Below, piece after piece: positions 54,736 through 63,368 of a stretch of DNA of 64,000 nt. The notes below the pieces were generated by a model, which saw nothing but the letters and a program-made list of their open reading frames with translations, had not been told where the DNA came from and searched no databases. How positions within the stretch are numbered: position 1 is the stretch's first letter; every line of letters starts with the position of its first letter. The translations under genes and the position numbers were made by a program. Source of the DNA: a virus (Duplodnaviria > Heunggongvirae > Uroviricota > Caudoviricetes); the IMG/VR virus record IMGVR_UViG_3300028833_002293, positions 36,535-100,534 of that record; one strand, written 5' to 3'.

Positions 54736-55311
54736 TACATCCGCTGGGACTCGAACCCAGAACCTACGGCTTCTTGCCACTCTATGTTGCCATAGCCAAA
54801 CAACGTTTATTACTTAAACTTCATCAGCCTTTGTGCGTCAGGTGAGCCTCTCACTCACAGTCTTTGTTTGTTGTGGTCTGGAATACATCTTTACCATATT
54901 GAAATTCTTGCAAGTAAGCAAGGAGGTTTTCCGATGTTTTATAACAGGACTACTGTGACCTTCCCTCACTAATTTCAACTTAGGCATTCTTATCAGATAC
55001 GTCTGAATAGAATGTGAGGGTATTCAATATATTTCCCTCATATCTCCTCTATACTCTCTACACGTTTATGACTAGTTATTATAAAACTCCGCATATTATA
55101 CAATCTATAATGATGCTTGTATTCATCGGCTAGTATAACACTTTTTCAATTTAGCACGGTATTATCCTTACACATTATTGGTTAGTGTGTAGTTGCTTGG
55201 CATCTACTACATGATATTACATCACTTAAAAGGACTTCCACCGTTTTAGGGAGATTCTACTATGGGATTTCTCGCCATAGCATCCAATTTGATTTAATCA
55301 TTTTCGGATGT
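54736..55311 (-). ncRNA. ~580-nt mosaic RNA module, copy 1: 7-nt complementary termini (ACATCCG...CGGATGT) with a T-arm at the 3' end; function unknown
   Basis: shares five conserved blocks (41, 103, 24, ~50 and ~35 nt) in the same order with 62745..63368, separated by unrelated spacers; contains no ORF. Confidence 0.4.
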
Positions 55312-55347
55312 ATTTATTGTGATGGGACTGGGACTCGAACCCAGAAC

Positions 55348-55962
55348 CTACTTCCCTATTTTGGTATTCTCATCAAATTTATGGTAACGATAATAACTTC
55401 TCGCTCCGTTTTTATTTTTAGATTTATATGTGTCTAACTGACTATCACAGTTTGGGCAAATACACCTCAAATTTTCTCTTTTATTGTTTGCGGCATTCCC
55501 ATCTATATGGTCTAATATAAACACTAGAGGTTTGCCATTGTGCTCTTGTCTACCTTTGCATATTGGACATATACCACCTTGTTCTTTTATAATATCTTTT
55601 TTAAATGCTTTTGGTGTATAATTAGCCCTACAATATTTCTCATTATGCTCTAGGAAATCTCTGTATGCTTCTTTATGTTTATATTTGCAAGAACATTCAA
55701 GAGAACAGAAATGTCCATAATGACTTTTGTATTTAATAAACTCTTCACCACAGTTCAAACATACATCTTTCTCAGCAGTACCCCTATTGAAATGCTCATT
55801 AGGGTTTATTTCTCTTCTTTTGGGAATTAGGATTCCTAATCTTTCTGCTGCCCTCTTTACTGCTTGACCACTTACACTGTATCGTCTACCAATTTCTTCA
55901 TATGATACGTGTTCTACGTTTATTAAACGTTCTAATTCATTTTTTTCATCTTTCCATTTCAT
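55348..55962 (-). CDS. HNH homing endonuclease with N-terminal helix-turn-helix
   Basis: 204 aa; C-terminal CPICKG...FILDHIDGNAANNKRENLRCICPNCDSQLDTYKSKN. Confidence 0.6.
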   Translation of the reverse strand: MKWKDEKNELERLINVEHVSYEEIGRRYSVSGQAVKRAAERLGILIPKRREINPNEHFNRGTAEKDVCLNCGEEFIKYKSHYGHFCSLECSCKYKHKEAYRDFLEHNEKYCRANYTPKAFKKDIIKEQGGICPICKGRQEHNGKPLVFILDHIDGNAANNKRENLRCICPNCDSQLDTYKSKNKNGARSYYRYHKFDENTKIGK

Positions 55963-56033
55963 AATATTCGTACATTTATATATAAATATTACGAACTTAT
56001 GAAAAGCTACGAATAATCGTACATTATTTTTTG

Positions 56034-56107
56034 TACTCCCAGTAGGAATTGCACCTACGACCTACTGCTTAGAAGGCAGTTGCTACTATCTACTGAGCTA
56101 TGGGAGC
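56034..56107 (-). tRNA. tRNA-Arg (anticodon UCU); T-loop TGCAATT is non-canonical
   Basis: reverse complement: GCTCCCA-TA-GCTC-AGTAGATA-GTAGC..ACTGC-CTTCTAA-GCAGT-AGGTC-GTAGG-TGCAATT-CCTAC-TGGGAGT-A. Confidence 0.5.
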
Positions 56108-56112
56108 ATTTT

Positions 56113-56142
56113 GGCTGCTCTATCCAGTTGAGCTACGGATGC
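56113..56142 (-). ncRNA. isolated tRNA 5' half (acceptor GCATCCG plus canonical D-arm) with no adjacent 3' half
   Basis: reverse complement: GCATCCG-TA-GCTC-AACTGGATA-GAGC-A-GCC; its acceptor strand is perfectly complementary (one G-U) to the 3' fragment CGGATGT at 54737..54743. Confidence 0.35.
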
Positions 56143-56529
56143 ATTTTCAAAAAATCTGATACACGAGAGTTACTTTAGGCTGCATAACCCTCTCCTTTGT
56201 GCGAACTCTATGCCAACGATATATTCGCCACACGCTCTATATGACTTCCCACTCGGCTTATCAAGTCTTTGTGTGTTACGTAACCAATCATTTCGCAATC
56301 CATGCATATCCAAGTGTACTAATCATCCAATCCTCTCAGATTTTATTTTTTATTCACATTCGTGAACCACAATATTGTTATCTTTGCTTGGGTCTTTACT
56401 TGGGTCATAATCCCCATGAATGAACGGCACATTTGGGTCAACCTCTTGAGCGTTATGAATACTATGTATGAATGCCACCAAGCTAATTAAGACTAAAGCT
56501 AGAAATATATACAACGCAATTGTCATAGT

Positions 56530-56697
56530 TTATTTGTTTTTAATTATTTCAGCTAATTCGTCCAAATCCTTTAAAAAGGAATCTCTGCTTTCTTCCTTAG
56601 ACGGTTTATTAGACCACTTGTTAAGGAGCTTTGATACCACCATAAGGACAAATATCATAATAAAAGCCGCAAACATAAAAAATAATAATCTTCCCAT
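56530..56697 (-). CDS. small single-pass membrane protein (start moved to the internal ATG)
   Basis: listed 63-aa ORF starts at TTG inside the promoter; the ATG at 56697 gives a 55-aa TM protein; promoter 56716..56752. Confidence 0.4.
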   Translation of the reverse strand: MGRLLFFMFAAFIMIFVLMVVSKLLNKWSNKPSKEESRDSFLKDLDELAEIIKNK

Positions 56698-56750
56698 ATT
56701 AAAACGTTTTTCGTACTGCAAAGATATGAAAAAAAATTGGATTAGCCAAA

Positions 56751-62000: not shown

Positions 62001-62214
62001 TTGACCTACGGATTACAAATCATAATAAAAACGTTTGCATTGCTGTATGTTTCCTTTTATGTTTTATGAGACTGTTTTGGCTCTATGCTTTCTGTTCTAT
62101 CACGTTCCAATACGTAATCCCTAAGAAGGGTTAGGCTTAACGAATTATTCTTTTACATTTCATTCGCCCTCTTGCTACTATAGCAAGACTGTGATTACTC
62201 ACCGTTCAGTCTCA

Positions 62215-62285
62215 TTGAGCAAGCCTATGGAATTGAACCATTCTCGCCCTCGGTTGAGGACAGTGCTACCGTTACACCAAAGCCG
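62215..62285 (-). ncRNA. mini tRNA-like element (acceptor-like end, D-arm, one hairpin, TTCAATT T-loop; no anticodon arm)
   Basis: reverse complement: GCGGCTT-TG-GTGT-AACGG..GTCCTC-AACC-GAGGGC..ATGG-TTCAATT-CCAT. Confidence 0.25.
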
Positions 62286-62299
62286 CATTTCATTTCTGT

Positions 62300-62338
62300 T
62301 TTGCAAAGATATATAAAATATTTCTTATTTCCAAATTT
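62300..62338 (-). promoter_or_regulatory. Bacteroidota-type promoter in the tRNA array
   Basis: ttgcaaagatatataaaatatttcttatttccaaat. Confidence 0.55.
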
Positions 62339-62479
62339 TTTAGAATTTTTTTTATTAAAATCCCATTTCTTCTTTTTGGGCGAAGTGTTGGTAATGCTCC
62401 AACGTCTTGAGTGCCACAAACTCACATTCTGCTTTTGAACTAACTACGCCATATTAAAAAAATCGGAATCTATTTTTTT

Positions 62480-62551
62480 TCGGAATTGTTGGATTCGAAC
62501 CAACGTCTCAAAATTATCAGTTTTGCATCTTAACCACTTGATTAAATTTCG
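62480..62551 (-). tRNA. tRNA-Ile (anticodon GAU), second copy; one A-C mismatch in acceptor
   Basis: reverse complement: CGAAATT-TA-ATC..GAT-G-CAAAA-CTGATAA-TTTTG-AGAC-GTTGG-TTCGAAT-CCAAC-AATTCCG-A. Confidence 0.5.
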
Positions 62552-62581
62552 TAAATTATCTTGCTGTTAGATTCCTTGTAG

Positions 62582-62653
62582 TTGCTAGGGTAGGACTCTG
62601 ACCTACAATCTCTTGGTAAAATCCAAGGCTTTGTGTAATTAAGCTACCTAGCA
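62582..62653 (-). tRNA. tRNA-Lys-like (UUU) with irregular anticodon-loop length and non-canonical T-loop
   Basis: reverse complement: TGCTAGG-TA-GCTT-AATTACACA-AAGC-C-CTTGG-ATTTTA(C)-CCAAG..GTAGG-TCAGAGT-CCTAC-CCTAGCA-A. Confidence 0.4.
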
Positions 62654-62744
62654 AAAATGCCAACACTCTAGAATTCTTGCATTATTACCTCTATAGTCTT
62701 ATGCTACTCTTAGAGAGGTTGTCTAAAGACTTGTACTAGCTTGT

Positions 62745-63368
62745 CGGAGAGGAGGGATTCGAACCCCCTGCATTTCTTATGTACTAGATTTCTTGCCACA
62801 CTATGTTACCATAGCCAAACTTAACAATAACGTATATACGAGGCACATGTCCCCATGCATCCAACCGATGATGCGTTAAATTTGTTGTGGTCTGGAATAC
62901 ATCTTTACCATATTGAAATTCTTCGAAGTTAATGTTCAGTAATTCCTATCATCTGTTTCATCTGATACGTCTACTTAAAATTAGATAGATATGTACATTA
63001 AATTTCAACTTAGGCATTCTTATCAGATACGTCTGAATAGAATGTGAGGGTATTCAATATATTTCCCTCATATCTCCTCTATACTCTCTACACGTTTATG
63101 AGAATCTTTCATTATCCATCTTCTTCCATTTTACTGATGGCTCTTCTCAATTTAGCACGGTATTATCCTTCCTTATTGTTTCAGATGCAGTTTACGTTTG
63201 CTGCAAGCCATTAAAGCCGTATTCCACTTTCGCCTATAGGCTACTAAGGGTCTTCAATTTTAACTAGGACTTCCACCGTTTTAGGGAGATTCTCATATGG
63301 GATTTCTCGCCATATGATGCAAATTCCTTACAGTCTAGCGCCCATCCACCATCTGAGCAGCTCTCCGA
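62745..63368 (-). ncRNA. ~620-nt mosaic RNA module, copy 2: termini CGGAGAG...CTCTCCG with a D-arm-like 5' end and a T-arm at the 3' end
   Basis: same five conserved blocks and GNRA hairpin CTATG-GTAA-CATAG as 54736..55311. Confidence 0.4.

Follow-up and report, generated by a model that had tools for sequence, protein, structure and literature searches.

Two related modules of ~580–620 nt in the 64,000-nt phage DNA analysed here (hereafter, the window) are very probably tRNA genes of the minus strand, whose anticodon loops are split by one family of large, ORF-less group I introns. A first-pass annotation of this DNA had presented them as tmRNA-like modules of an unidentified class, and had listed an intron-containing tRNA and a group I intron among its further options; these two options, taken together, agree with the present reading. 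Copy 2 (62744–63367) is a tRNA-Tyr(GUA) gene with a 538-nt intron between U35 and A36, and copy 1 (54736–55311) derives from a tRNA-Arg(UCU) gene carrying the same intron at position 36/37.

Two interrupted genes in a minus-strand tRNA array

Both copies lie where they had been reported, within ±1 nt, and the five blocks described as common to them occur in the same order in our pairwise alignment (A1). The longest block is indeed 100% identical between the copies, its length being 101 nt (63001–63101 = 54971–55071) and not 103. In the window, block probes have exactly two occurrences, against a chance expectation of 0.00 to 0.29 matches, and a window search with block HMMs retrieved these two copies and no other. 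The 7-nt termini are exactly complementary, as claimed (ACATCCG/CGGATGT and CGGAGAG/CTCTCCG), each with a canonical T arm adjoining, so that the module ends do correspond to tRNA acceptor and T-arm halves. The reported absence of a tag-peptide ORF also holds, the longest ORF on either strand having at most 56 codons in the Tyr module and at most 49 in copy 1.

ARAGORN predicts 28 tRNA genes in the window; Rfam finds 30 tRNAs and, at 42175–42537, a genuine tmRNA, and all of these are on the minus strand. The blocks had been described on the plus strand; the RNA-coding strand is the minus one, as indicated by these tRNAs and the tmRNA, and by two elements that can be read only there. The GNRA hairpin of the first-pass annotation is real, with a loop GUAA or GCAA legible on the minus strand only, and the D-arm-like GCTC...GGGC is a D arm that follows the 5′ acceptor strand only in that orientation.

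With its intron option, ARAGORN identifies copy 2 as tRNA-Tyr(gta) at c[62743,63367] with intron i(39,538), the sole tRNA-Tyr in the window. In the 5′ exon (63330–63367, minus strand; ARAGORN), the acceptor 5′ strand is CGGAGAG, the D arm GCUC...GGGC and the 5′ strand of the anticodon stem CUAGA; C32 U33 G34 U35 belong to the loop. The 3′ exon (62744–62791, minus strand; ARAGORN fold of the spliced exons) provides A36 A37 A38 and UCUAG as the 3′ strand of the anticodon stem; next come a long variable arm, a T arm of sequence GGGGG-UUCGAAU-CCCUC, CUCUCCG as the acceptor 3′ strand, and the discriminator A. The joined exons fold in ARAGORN into a canonical type-II tRNA-Tyr cloverleaf. Between them, the ORF-less intron (62792–63329, minus strand; ARAGORN and core covariation) starts with AAGGAAUUUGCAUC and ends with GUGGCAAG, whose final G is the terminal (omega) G, and the sequence permits a U(-1)/G(omega) junction. 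An internal guide sequence, UUUGCA (63318–63323, minus strand), was read from the sequence, and its layout recurs in homologues: its GCA pairs with the exon end UGU to form P1, with U35•G at the 5′ splice site, and its UUU can pair with intron positions +1 to +3 and later with AAA of the 3′ exon (P10). Judged from its sequence, copy 2 is a working-looking tRNA-Tyr gene.

The parentage of copy 1 is apparent from the relative L055, which has at the same site a complete tRNA-Arg(UCU) without the intron; the 3′ half of this tRNA is identical to that of copy 1, and its downstream flank is nearly identical. This empty-site allele shows that the insert is an insertion. The 3′ exon of copy 1 (54736–54772, minus strand; comparison with L055) contains AA, the anticodon-stem 3′ strand GCCGU, the variable loop AGGUU, the T arm CUGGG-UUCGAGU-CCCAG, the acceptor 3′ strand CGGAUGU and the discriminator A. 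The intron, of about 526 nt (54773–55298, minus strand; alignment and sequence reading), has a core as in copy 2 and a guide, UUGGAUG, equal to that of tRNA-Arg(UCU) introns at 36/37. On comparison with the intron-less L055 allele and with L016/L022, the 5′ exon remnant ACAUCCG AAAAUG (55299–55311, minus strand) preserves only the 7-nt acceptor strand in recognisable form; nothing is left of the D stem, the 5′ strand of the anticodon stem or the anticodon (nucleotides ~8–36), and ARAGORN, with introns allowed, found no tRNA in copy 1. This lack of most of the 5′ exon had been overlooked in the first-pass annotation.

Directly upstream of copy 1 lies a free-standing ORF of 204 aa (55348–55962, minus strand; translation) encoding an HNH endonuclease, with a marginal match to Pfam HNH_3 (E = 3.6e-5, 23.7 bits for a cut-off of 24.8). 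This ORF stands in place of the 5′ part of the neighbouring tRNA, whose 3′ end survives (55320–55351) and which is intact in the contigs L016/L022. The HNH protein could possibly be a mobility factor acting in trans.

A group I core with mosaic peripheral extensions

Together, the five conserved blocks form a group I core extending from P1 to P9 with a P3/P7 pseudoknot, made up of the guide and P1, P2 with a GAAA loop, P3, P4-P5-P6, P7, P8 with its receptor, P9.0, P9, P9a and the terminal G. Covariation among collected homologues, an analysis that the first-pass annotation had suggested, supports this core and bears out the earlier view that conserved blocks with variable linkers denote a structured RNA; the supposedly unrelated spacers correspond to extensions of P5, P6, P8 and P9 at the periphery, mosaic in their make-up.

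All core elements are on the minus strand. The P2 hairpin, with a bulged C and the L2 GAAA tetraloop (copy 2, 63294–63316; copy 1, 55259–55281), exhibits compensatory changes in seven of its nine pairs. It is followed by the segment from the P3 to the P5 5′ strands (63266–63292; 55231–55257), which reads in copy 2 P3 AUCUCC, J3/4 CUAAA, P4 ACGGUG, J4/5 GAA and P5 GUCCU. The next segment (63147–63170; 55146–55169), placed by pair counts and the Rfam alignment, contains P5 3′ AGGAU, J5/4 AAU, P4 3′ UACCGU and the P6 5′ strand. Covariation then locates J6/7, the P7 5′ strand and the P3 3′ strand (63072–63100; 55042–55070); the ‘R’-like element of copy 2, GUGUAGAGAGUAUAGAGGAGAU, combines J6/7, P7 5′ GAGUAUA and P3 3′ GGAGAU, and the consensus of the Rfam group I model that aligns here is GUUCAaAGACUAAAcGgCaGacA. 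Two optional hairpins at the P7.1/P7.2 position, between P3′ and P8 (63015–63071; 54985–55041), correspond in copy 2 to UGAGGG-loop-CCCUCA and CAUUCU...AGAAUG; they are present in a subset of family members only (alignment A2, columns 616–670), and in L033 the stem covaries while the loop is conserved. The P8 5′ strand (63001–63014; 54971–54984) carries the CCUAAG half of an 11-nt GAAA-tetraloop receptor. The block from the P8 3′ strand to the P9 5′ strand (62882–62923; 54868–54909), defined by covariation, includes the UAUGG receptor half, J8/7 with P7 3′ (‘S’-like AAGAUGUAUUCC in copy 2), P9.0 5′ CCAC and P9 5′, and is common to ~200-nt tRNA introns in L026, L028 and L031. The last segment (62792–62820; 54773–54801) comprises the P9 3′ strand, the P9a hairpin (CUAUG-GUAA-CAUAG in copy 2, with a GNRA loop that is GCAA in copy 1), the P9.0 3′ strand GUGG and the terminal G, which is nearly invariant across sequences. 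The P9.0 pair alternates between C-G and U-A (23 versus 17 sequences), with U•G intermediates (n = 11).

Among 26 full introns, 98.9% of the pair cells are paired, compared with 33–45% when the partner strand is slid, and compensatory changes occur in 13 pairs; none of 500 shuffles matched the observed values. For 51 distinct homologue cores the figures are 98.8% and 35–46%. The percentage paired is inflated by derivation of the structure from the same sequences and by the use of HMM-extracted blocks in the alignment (A4). Covariation is seen in 26 of the 61 pairs of these cores, and each helix between P2 and P9a, those of the P3 and P7 pseudoknot among them, has one such pair or more; P4 and P8 are largely invariant, so that few covarying pairs support each of them.

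The inserts form one family of group I introns of about 460–600 nt, lacking ORFs, and not a new RNA class. In uncultured phage contigs, within many large-phage tRNA clusters, they interrupt the anticodon loops of at least six tRNA types, namely tRNA-Arg(UCU), Leu(UAA), Met(CAU), Ser(UGA), Lys(UUU) and Tyr; by manual reading, they do so at four positions (33/34, 34/35, 35/36 and 36/37), always after U. A U(-1)/G(omega) junction is directly possible in 17 element-spanning ARAGORN calls; most of the other such calls are boundary miscalls, which were re-read by eye. The family member L019 bears an endonuclease-like ORF in a peripheral region, and the introns of L027 and L042, which have one core block in common with the family, also carry ORFs. 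We did not find the family among GenBank phages, and a scan of one 20-mer against 185,579 genomes produced a chance match only.

This family escapes the standard RNA-family library. In the Rfam comparison that the first-pass annotation had likewise suggested, neither copy reaches the threshold: the group I model RF00028 scores 13.7 bits on copy 1, with E about 1, and has no match on copy 2 or on the ~200-nt relatives. The same model reaches 85 bits on a canonical intron of a related contig. Its below-threshold alignment to copy 1 nevertheless puts P1–P6 and the R element exactly at the positions that we had assigned by hand, and the family member L001 displays textbook R/S sequences (AGACU.../...AUAGUCC).

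Splicing and alternative readings

These features suggest that the RNA self-splices by the standard group I pathway. In copy 2, the anticodon stem and P1 would form, exon UGU pairing with guide GCA through U35•G; an external guanosine would attack after U35; AAA of the 3′ exon would then pair with guide UUU (P10), and, with the terminal G in the G site, the exons would be ligated. The predicted junction, ...CUGU followed by AAAUCUAG..., would yield a normal 86-nt type-II tRNA-Tyr. The peripheral extensions have probably been shuffled among intron copies by recombination.

Copy 1 cannot yield a tRNA, since exon nucleotides about 8–36 are lost, and the only P1 partner left is CAUCC of the acceptor strand, with C-G instead of U•G where the splice site would be. 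Copy 1 is therefore read as a relic, most likely in decay, which we infer to be non-functional, and its likeness to copy 2 in the core was most likely kept by recency or gene conversion. Its exact 7-bp acceptor pairing, with changes that are compensated relative to other tRNA-Arg genes, sits uneasily with pure decay.

We consider it unlikely that copy 1 is a functional variant releasing an acceptor/T-arm minihelix or a tRNA 3′ half, via an alternative P1 (acceptor CAUCC with guide GGAUG) or hydrolysis at the 3′ splice site, to produce what could be a decoy or a substrate for CCA addition or aminoacylation. The retained acceptor complementarity is consistent with such a role, and the same truncated layout occurs in three contigs (the window, L016 and L022) with different intron peripheries; however, these are close relatives with highly similar flanks, so that the truncation may be simply inherited. 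The alternative P1 is probably a coincidence, since the same GGAUG guide is present in tRNA-Arg introns associated with non-pairing acceptor stems. The residual 5′ sequence (AAUG-AUUA) resembles a D loop that has decayed. Among bacterial tRNA-Leu group I introns, a class with C(-1):G has been described, which favours a functional copy 1, but a C(-1) substitution inactivates the Tetrahymena intron (bioRxiv 10.1101/2020.01.27.920355 and work cited therein).

Returning to self-splicing of the family, P1 is very short (three exon base pairs in copy 2 and 3–5 in homologues), with a U-U mismatch in some tRNA-Arg members. The large mosaic peripheral domains, the evident damage to copy 1, the L045 intron, which ends in A instead of G, and the failure of Rfam to recognise the family could likewise point to group I derivatives that no longer self-splice, either requiring a protein cofactor from the phage or its host, or being inactive remnants in both copies, with a dead tRNA-Tyr gene. 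We regard this as improbable: the exons and every core pair of copy 2 are intact, purifying selection acts on the core, which shows compensatory changes among the 51 variants, and the tRNA-Tyr of copy 2 is the only one in an otherwise rich array. Exon pairing over three bases is also found in the Azoarcus tRNA intron (CAU with GUG), which counts against a loss of self-splicing.

The tmRNA-like reading, in which the modules would be stand-alone large non-coding RNAs that function unspliced, their tRNA-like ends clamping a structured insert, seems very improbable. The ends can form an acceptor and T minihelix, the 5′ side of copy 1 is reduced to an acceptor strand like the tRNA-like domain of tmRNA, and no Rfam family is assigned to either module. 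However, copy 2 needs no more than its exons for a complete tRNA-Tyr, in which the D arm is full and the anticodon stem, the GUA anticodon and the variable arm are all present, and homologues of the insert occupy the anticodon loops of more than 20 ordinary tRNA genes of differing identity. The insert has a covarying group I core, U(-1) and a terminal G; L055 provides the empty-site allele, and the window has its real tmRNA elsewhere, Rfam and ARAGORN giving no tmRNA match on the modules.

Finally, a group II or protein-spliced bulge-helix-bulge intron is hardly credible: the anticodon loop hosts all classes of tRNA introns, but the ends are AAGG.../...CAAG and not GUGYG.../...AY, Rfam yields no group II intron at gathering threshold in the window or up to E = 10 over either module, no domain V-like hairpin was seen in the modules, 538 nt and position 35/36 are unlike the canonical 37/38 protein-spliced class, no bulge-helix-bulge is formed, and only group I introns have the P3/P7 pseudoknot topology.

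Comparison with known introns and large RNAs

Like tmRNA, the modules enclose a large structured insert between acceptor and T-arm ends that resemble a tRNA; unlike tmRNA, they lack a tag ORF, and copy 2 has complete D and anticodon arms. They also resemble ROOL and GOLLD RNAs (about 500–800 nt) in being ORF-less and ornate, in size, and in their occurrence in phage tRNA clusters and similar metagenomes. Rfam gives no ROOL or GOLLD match at gathering threshold, nor up to E = 10 on the two modules, and these RNAs are free-standing genes without a group I core, unlike the present family inside tRNA anticodon loops.

Classical phage group I introns (T4 td, nrdB and nrdD, Twort, SPO1 and those of the jumbo gut ‘Jug’ phages) are likewise phage-borne and often linked to HNH or GIY-YIG endonucleases, as here through the ORFs of the family member L019 and of the L027 and L042 introns, which share core sequence with it, and through the free-standing HNH gene adjoining copy 1. 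Whereas the Jug-phage introns lie in protein genes, the present family interrupts tRNA genes.

In Patescibacteria, group I introns at 35/36 are found in tRNA-Asn, tRNA-Asp and one tRNA-Tyr(GUA), and the split genes are also missed by standard annotation tools (PMC13011429). Copy 2 is like the last case in tRNA identity and insertion site but is phage-borne, whereas the Patescibacteria introns are chromosomal and much shorter.

The bacterial IC3-type tRNA introns include those of Azoarcus tRNA-Ile, Anabaena and other cyanobacterial tRNA-Leu(UAA), tRNA-fMet and tRNA-Arg(CCU). The phage family differs from them in its large mosaic extensions of P5, P6, P8 and P9, in the optional hairpin pair between P3′ and P8, in its location in phage tRNA arrays instead of bacterial chromosomes, and in escaping detection by RF00028. 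Its introns are also two to three times longer than bacterial tRNA introns (460–600 nt compared with a mean of 257 bp) and yet ORF-less, whereas among 333 bacterial tRNA introns surveyed all 12 longer than 500 bp had homing endonuclease genes (PMC13011429). Both groups share an anticodon-loop position directly after U and a terminal G, a short P1 formed with the last 3–5 exon nucleotides and U•G at the site, and a P2 to P9 core with the P3/P7 pseudoknot and a GNRA L9-type loop; the tRNA-Leu(UAA) 34/35 and tRNA-Arg 36/37 sites recur in the phage family. As in the Azoarcus tRNA intron (1U6B), L2 GAAA is combined with an 11-nt receptor in P8 (CCUAAG/UAUGG in the phage family), in line with the receptor consensus and the Azoarcus L2/P8 precedent (PMC3494683).

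Two probable intron-split tRNA genes

Pairwise alignment (A1) of the two minus-strand modules, copy 1 (54736-55311) and copy 2 (62744-63367), confirmed the five common blocks reported in the first-pass annotation, in the same order, with dissimilar stretches between them and module limits correct within 1 nt. The long block is identical in both copies as claimed, with a length of 101 nt (63001-63101 and 54971-55071) instead of 103 nt, and in both copies, as previously described, the 7-nt ends are complementary and lie next to a T arm. Probes for each block occur exactly twice in the window (chance expectation 0.00 to 0.29), and profile HMMs, one per block, matched only copy 1 and copy 2 there.

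We conclude that these modules are very probably two tRNA genes on the minus strand, each interrupted by a large group I intron that is IC3-like and ORF-less, and for which self-splicing can be predicted. The first-pass annotation had given precedence to a tmRNA-like architecture, based on the tRNA-like ends of ORF-free modules, and had listed introns, the right answer, among several options; its interpretation is thus supported in part. tmRNAs combine a tRNA-Ala-like domain, a resume codon, a tag ORF and pseudoknots, and are recognised by ARAGORN and by the Rfam model RF00023. Neither Rfam nor ARAGORN reports a tmRNA at either module, the acceptor stems are devoid of G3:U70, and our ORF scan agrees with the annotation that no tag-peptide ORF is present. 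Group II introns, defined by a 5′ GUGYG, a domain V, a bulged A in domain VI and a 3′ AY, can be dismissed, as the ends (AAGG... and ...CAAG) are not of this type and Rfam detected no such intron at the gathering threshold in the whole window, nor up to E = 10 over either module.

Allowing introns, ARAGORN identified in copy 2 a tRNA-Tyr(GUA) gene at c[62743,63367], the only tRNA-Tyr call in the window, interrupted in the anticodon loop by an intron of 538 nt. Three junctions are possible, all leading to one identical mature tRNA-Tyr; at one of them, the 5′ splice site is preceded by a U and the intron terminates with a G (...CUAGACUGU↓AAGGAAUUUGCA...GUGGCAAG↓AAAUCUAG..., arrows marking splice sites). 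The joined exons adopt a canonical bacterial type-II tRNA-Tyr fold. In P1, the exon UGU faces the guide GCA, which creates a U35•G pair (UGU↓AAG with UUUGCA). Splicing of copy 2 would produce a ligated tRNA-Tyr of ~86 nt, with the junction ...GCUAGACUGU↓AAAUCUAGUAC..., and an intron of ~538 nt with an added 5′ G.

Copy 1, judging from its sequence, is most likely a relic. Its 3′ exon and its guide (UUGGAUG) are those of the introns located at position 36/37 of tRNA-Arg(UCU), and a scan with a T-loop/acceptor 20-mer led to a complete, intron-less tRNA-Arg(UCU) at the same site in L055, one of the related loci on other uncultured phage contigs (GCAUCCG UA GCUC AAUGGAUUA GAGC A ACGGC CUUCUAA GCCGU AGGUU CUGGG...). 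The 3′ half of this allele is identical to copy 1 and its downstream flank nearly so. Upstream of its intron, copy 1 retains only 13 nt; here, as in the related loci L016 and L022, they are limited to ACAUCCG and a few D-loop-like nucleotides. The D stem, the 5′ strand of the anticodon stem and the anticodon are lost, and the original P1 partner (UCU) is therefore gone; complete tRNA arms are absent after intron removal, and ARAGORN (introns allowed) finds no gene at copy 1. The sole P1 option left involves the acceptor strand (CAUCC/GGAUG) and leads to a C-G pair, not U•G, where splicing would take place. Bacteria do have group I introns of a C(-1) class, of untested activity; in the Tetrahymena intron, the corresponding substitution abolishes activity (bioRxiv 10.1101/2020.01.27.920355). 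The 7-nt termini and T arm retained in copy 1 might instead yield a processed minihelix product, a possibility that we regard as improbable compared with a relic. A separate intact tRNA-Arg(UCU) is located at 56033-56107 (ARAGORN). We also rejected a complete tRNA at copy 1 with an AUGGC/GCCGU anticodon stem, because this segment is homologous to P2 of the copy 2 intron.

The group I core and its peripheral extensions

The secondary structure model (helices P1 to P9a, joining segments J, loops L) comprises a P2 with a bulged C and a GAAA loop, P3 (AUCUCC/GGAGAU), P4 (ACGGUG/UACCGU), P5 (GUCCU/AGGAU), P6 (UGAN.../...NUCA), P7 (GAGUAUA/UGUAUUC), P8 (UUGAAAUU/AAUUUCAA, bordered by CCUAAG and UAUGG), P9.0 (CCAC/GUGG), P9, P9a (CUAUG-GUAA-CAUAG) and a terminal G. 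The joining segments J3/4 (CUAAA), J4/5 (GAA) and J5/4 (AAU) are all invariant or nearly so in an alignment of 51 distinct cores (A4), in which the outer G-C pair of P7 is found in 50 sequences. The terminal (omega) G, which closes both window copies (...GGCAAG), is near-invariant among the same cores; L045, with an A, is an exception. The sequence GUGUAGAGAGUAUAGAGGAG aligns to the R segment of the Rfam group I consensus, and AAGAUGUAUUCC agrees at 10 of 12 positions with the S consensus AAGAUAUAGUCC. One member, L001, exhibits a textbook version of P7 (AGACU.../...AUAGUCC).

In 26 full-length introns (A2), 98.9% of the pair cells contain standard pairs, versus 33-45% after sliding of the 3′ partner by 1-3 columns; two-sided changes affect 13 pairs, and the observed values were reached by 0 of 500 shuffles. 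Core blocks were pulled from all loci by HMM, giving 72 distinct cores, of which the 51 of A4 were aligned. Here, 98.8% of cells are paired versus 35-46% after sliding (0/500 shuffles as high), and compensatory changes occur in 26 of 61 pairs, with at least one per helix (three each in P3, P6 and P8, two in P7), figures to be read with a structure model derived from the tested sequences themselves and a shuffle control that takes no account of phylogeny. The pair counts in both alignments support the P3-P4-P5-P6-P7-P3′-P8-P7′ double pseudoknot followed by P9. Two earlier pairings were abandoned. UGAGGG/CCCUCA was rejected as P3 because it left no room for P4-P6; compared with members devoid of this segment, it corresponds to an optional inserted hairpin, the true P3 being AUCUCC/GGAGAU. 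Similarly, GAAUA/UAUUC was replaced as P7 by GAGUAUA/UGUAUUC, which covaries.

Searches of each module with Rfam up to E = 10 gave, for copy 1, a group I match to RF00028 at 13.7 bits (E 0.7-1), below the 50-bit gathering threshold, no RF00028 match for copy 2, and otherwise noise. The sub-threshold alignment positions P1, P2, P3, J3/4, P4, P5, P6 and the R element of copy 1 exactly as in our hand-made model and supports the group I core independently. RF00028 was built without bacterial seed sequences and overlooks some genuine tRNA introns (bioRxiv 10.1101/2020.01.27.920355; PMC13011429).

In P1 of members other than L020, L038b and the L010/L017 class, the nucleotides located just 5′ of the first conserved hairpin can pair with the end of the exon, with U opposite G, for instance ACUU↓UC with GAGAGU in L001, CAU with GUG in L002 and UCU↓A with UGGA in the tRNA-Arg group. 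The U(-1)•G pair is found in copy 2 and in introns hosted by Leu, Arg, Met, Ser and Lys tRNAs, and is lacking in copy 1; a U/G junction is directly possible in 17 ARAGORN calls.

Introns of the IC3 type typically have an L9 tetraloop that docks on P5, a size of ~200-250 nt and no P7.1/P7.2. The P9a loop of the family is GUAA or GCAA, and no receptor for it was identified in P5. Introns of the family measure 460-600 nt, and some of them, the two in the window included, possess two additional hairpins located between P3′ and P8. The L2 GAAA is present in nearly all members, including those with covarying closing pairs, and, together with the 11-nt receptor formed by CCUAAG...UAUGG around P8, reproduces the elements of the L2/P8 contact of the Azoarcus tRNA intron, so that a similar docking can be predicted here. 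In the Azoarcus structure 1U6B, loop 24-27 contacts the receptor 146-151/160-164 (PMC3494683).

The variable stretches between blocks correspond to extensions of P5, P6, P8 and P9, whose distribution in A2 is mosaic. Copy 2 shares its P5 extension with L004 and its P6 and P9 extensions with L049; copy 1 shares its P8 extension with L011, and its P6 extension is identical to that of the tRNA-Leu intron of L019. Between P3′ and P8, the 101-nt identical block contains a 57-nt pair of hairpins that part of the family lacks; in L033, the first of its stems has covarying changes around a conserved loop. Conserved peripheral hairpins exhibit the loops UAACCAAUAAU (P5 extension) and AAAUAUAUUGAAUA. 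Mobile group I introns usually encode an endonuclease in their periphery. No ORF of more than 97 codons was detected on either strand of any of the 26 introns. An endonuclease-like ORF is present in the peripheral region of L019, a member of the family, and L027 and L042, introns with only one core block in common, also bear ORFs.

The tRNA array and its phage

ARAGORN detected 28 tRNA genes in the window, and Rfam, at the gathering threshold over the whole window, 30 tRNAs and one bona fide tmRNA, nothing else, all on the minus strand between ~31 and 62.5 kb. The tmRNA (42175-42537, minus strand; 76.9 bits) lies inside the tRNA array and was not listed by the default run of ARAGORN. Two genes upstream of the array, jointly assigned to 7998-9392 and 2580-3920 on the minus strand, encode a protein of the CCA-adding enzyme or poly(A) polymerase family (PolyA_pol, E = 3.4e-26) and a nicotinate phosphoribosyltransferase. 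These are typical auxiliary genes of large phages; since an HNH endonuclease is also encoded (protein-domain search) and the relatives are found on viral contigs of 100-400 kb, the window originates from a large uncultured phage.

A putative HNH ORF of 204 aa lies beside copy 1 (within 55320-55962, minus strand; Pfam HNH_3, 23.7 bits, just below the cut-off). A type-II tRNA(UCU), complete in L016 and L022, has had its 5′ part replaced by this ORF; the last 32 nt of the tRNA survive and overlap the 3′ end of the ORF. This arrangement resembles that of free-standing homing endonucleases in T4-like tRNA clusters.

A T-arm scan revealed more than a dozen additional minus-strand T arms outside any called tRNA, two of which terminate the modules. 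We considered the orphan T arms as further split or permuted tRNA genes; at least two are better explained as Y-RNA-like (YrlA) tRNA mimics. These two elements (59452-59572 and 61929-62030, minus strand) look like circularly permuted tRNAs, with a T arm and acceptor 3′ strand, a loop, the acceptor 5′ strand and a D arm, closed by a stem GGAAACG.../...CGUUUCC. From their sub-threshold Rfam matches to YrlA (35.3 and 33.3 bits; E = 3.7e-5 and 1.4e-4), they are probably phage-encoded mimics of this kind, and similar matches occur in L020 and L024. At least six minus-strand copies of the motif GGAAAC(G/A)UACAGCA are dispersed in the array (e.g., ~54690, ~54520, ~58725, ~59585, ~61560 and ~62075), several pairing, as 5′ strands of long-range stems, with CGUUUCC/CGUUCC located downstream; a stem of this kind belongs to a ~170-nt element directly downstream of copy 1 that terminates in a U run.

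Several tRNAs (48113-48199, 51684-51772 and 36322-36413, minus strand) combine type-II bodies, with a long variable arm and a Ser/Leu-like D loop, with the anticodons UUU (Lys), GUU (Asn) and CUA (amber suppressor), and type-II tRNAs with UCU (Arg) are present in L016/L022. Such tRNAs might act as decoys that attract anticodon nucleases, or might bring about recoding or mistranslation. Two other tRNA-like genes above the Rfam tRNA threshold contain inserts much below the size of group I introns: a tRNA-Asn(GUU) with 53 nt in the anticodon loop (39747-39871, minus strand; 39.4 bits) and a Leu-like tRNA with 34 nt (59029-59142, minus strand; 35 bits).

Distribution of the family and comparison with known introns

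Exact-word scans with two conserved blocks retrieved 24 and 12 viral loci, a third block retrieved 39, and a metagenome scan yielded 96 stretches. The host tRNAs, all interrupted in the anticodon loop according to ARAGORN, are Arg(UCU), Leu(UAA), Met(CAU), Ser(UGA), Lys(UUU) and Tyr. Once ARAGORN boundaries were mended against the invariant 3′ end of the intron, insertion sites could be read at 33/34 in Leu (L011, L014), 34/35 in Leu, Arg, Ser and Lys, 35/36 in Tyr and 36/37 in Arg and Met, each of them preceded by a U. BLASTN of copy 1 ('distant' mode) gave no match among 50,697 GenBank phage records. An exact 20-mer of block 1 retrieved the family from none of 185,579 representative prokaryotic genomes, its single match being a chance occurrence inside a sigma-factor-like ORF of a Telluribacter MAG. 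Rfam detected no group I match in ten related loci and one ~200-nt relative and, in loci with related cores in protein-coding genes, found only a different canonical intron (L044, 85 bits); thus, intermediates provide no link to RF00028.

Introns of ~300 nt are present in protein-coding, apparently structural, genes of L037, L044, L046, L047 and L051, some with GIY-YIG or HNH ORFs close by; their P4-P5-P4′ segment is nearly identical (ACGGUGAAGUCC...AAGGAUAAUACCGUGCUAA), and they are also missed by RF00028. The ribozyme core of the family is located between genes, outside tRNAs, in L010, L017, L039, L040, L048 and L050. It is bordered on its 5′ side by the terminal part (3′) of a tRNA in L040 and, in the five others, by a conserved non-tRNA sequence finishing ...CCCCUAACAA. 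These intergenic cores end a few nucleotides past the 3′ strand of P7, without P9, and are directly followed by a complete tRNA; their P1 has no U•G. They may be group I-derived ribozymes that process tRNA 5′ ends, or degenerate introns.

On a less likely reading, which starts from the twice-normal size of the ORF-less introns, their ornate, conserved and exchanged periphery and their presence in many tRNAs, the introns would not be merely selfish, and a separate role might belong to the excised RNA or to the moment at which splicing occurs. Splicing may gate the maturation of phage tRNAs during infection, the intron may persist as a stable structured RNA like ROOL and GOLLD, which also occur beside phage tRNAs, or it may shield the anticodon loops of pre-tRNAs, or the tRNA genes, against anticodon nucleases or homing endonucleases. 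It seems rather unlikely that the family is both the first of its kind to be recognised in tRNA genes of phages and more than selfish, with a functional intron or splicing timing.

The default run of ARAGORN, Rfam and, by extension, tRNAscan miss such intron-split genes; therefore, the only tRNA-Tyr of the window and many Arg, Leu, Met, Lys and Ser tRNAs of its relatives are absent from tRNA inventories, which feed analyses of codon usage, host prediction and recoding. The 51 distinct cores, with covariation in every helix, form a ready seed for a new covariance model. A single intron lineage occupying four anticodon-loop positions in at least six tRNA species, with cassette-like swapping of peripheral domains, offers a natural system to study guide retargeting, the spread of ORF-less introns (with free-standing HNH genes in the array) and the reasons why more than 500 nt of protein-free periphery persist.

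According to a 2014 review, all phage group I introns known at that time were in protein-coding genes, despite the many tRNA genes of phages (PMC3984707), and introns have been reported only in protein genes of jumbo gut phages (PMC12880540). [quoted passage not shown] Bacterial group I introns occupy nearly all anticodon-loop positions, including 35/36 of tRNA-Tyr in a Patescibacteria genome; they have a mean size of 257 bp, and the 12 of 333 that exceed 500 bp all encode endonucleases (PMC13011429). Together with the evidence from the core, this literature indicates that the family corresponds to group I tRNA introns of familiar mechanism and is not a new class of RNA. It differs from the bacterial tRNA introns by its location in phage tRNA arrays, by its size of 460-600 nt without an ORF and by a sequence beyond the reach of RF00028.
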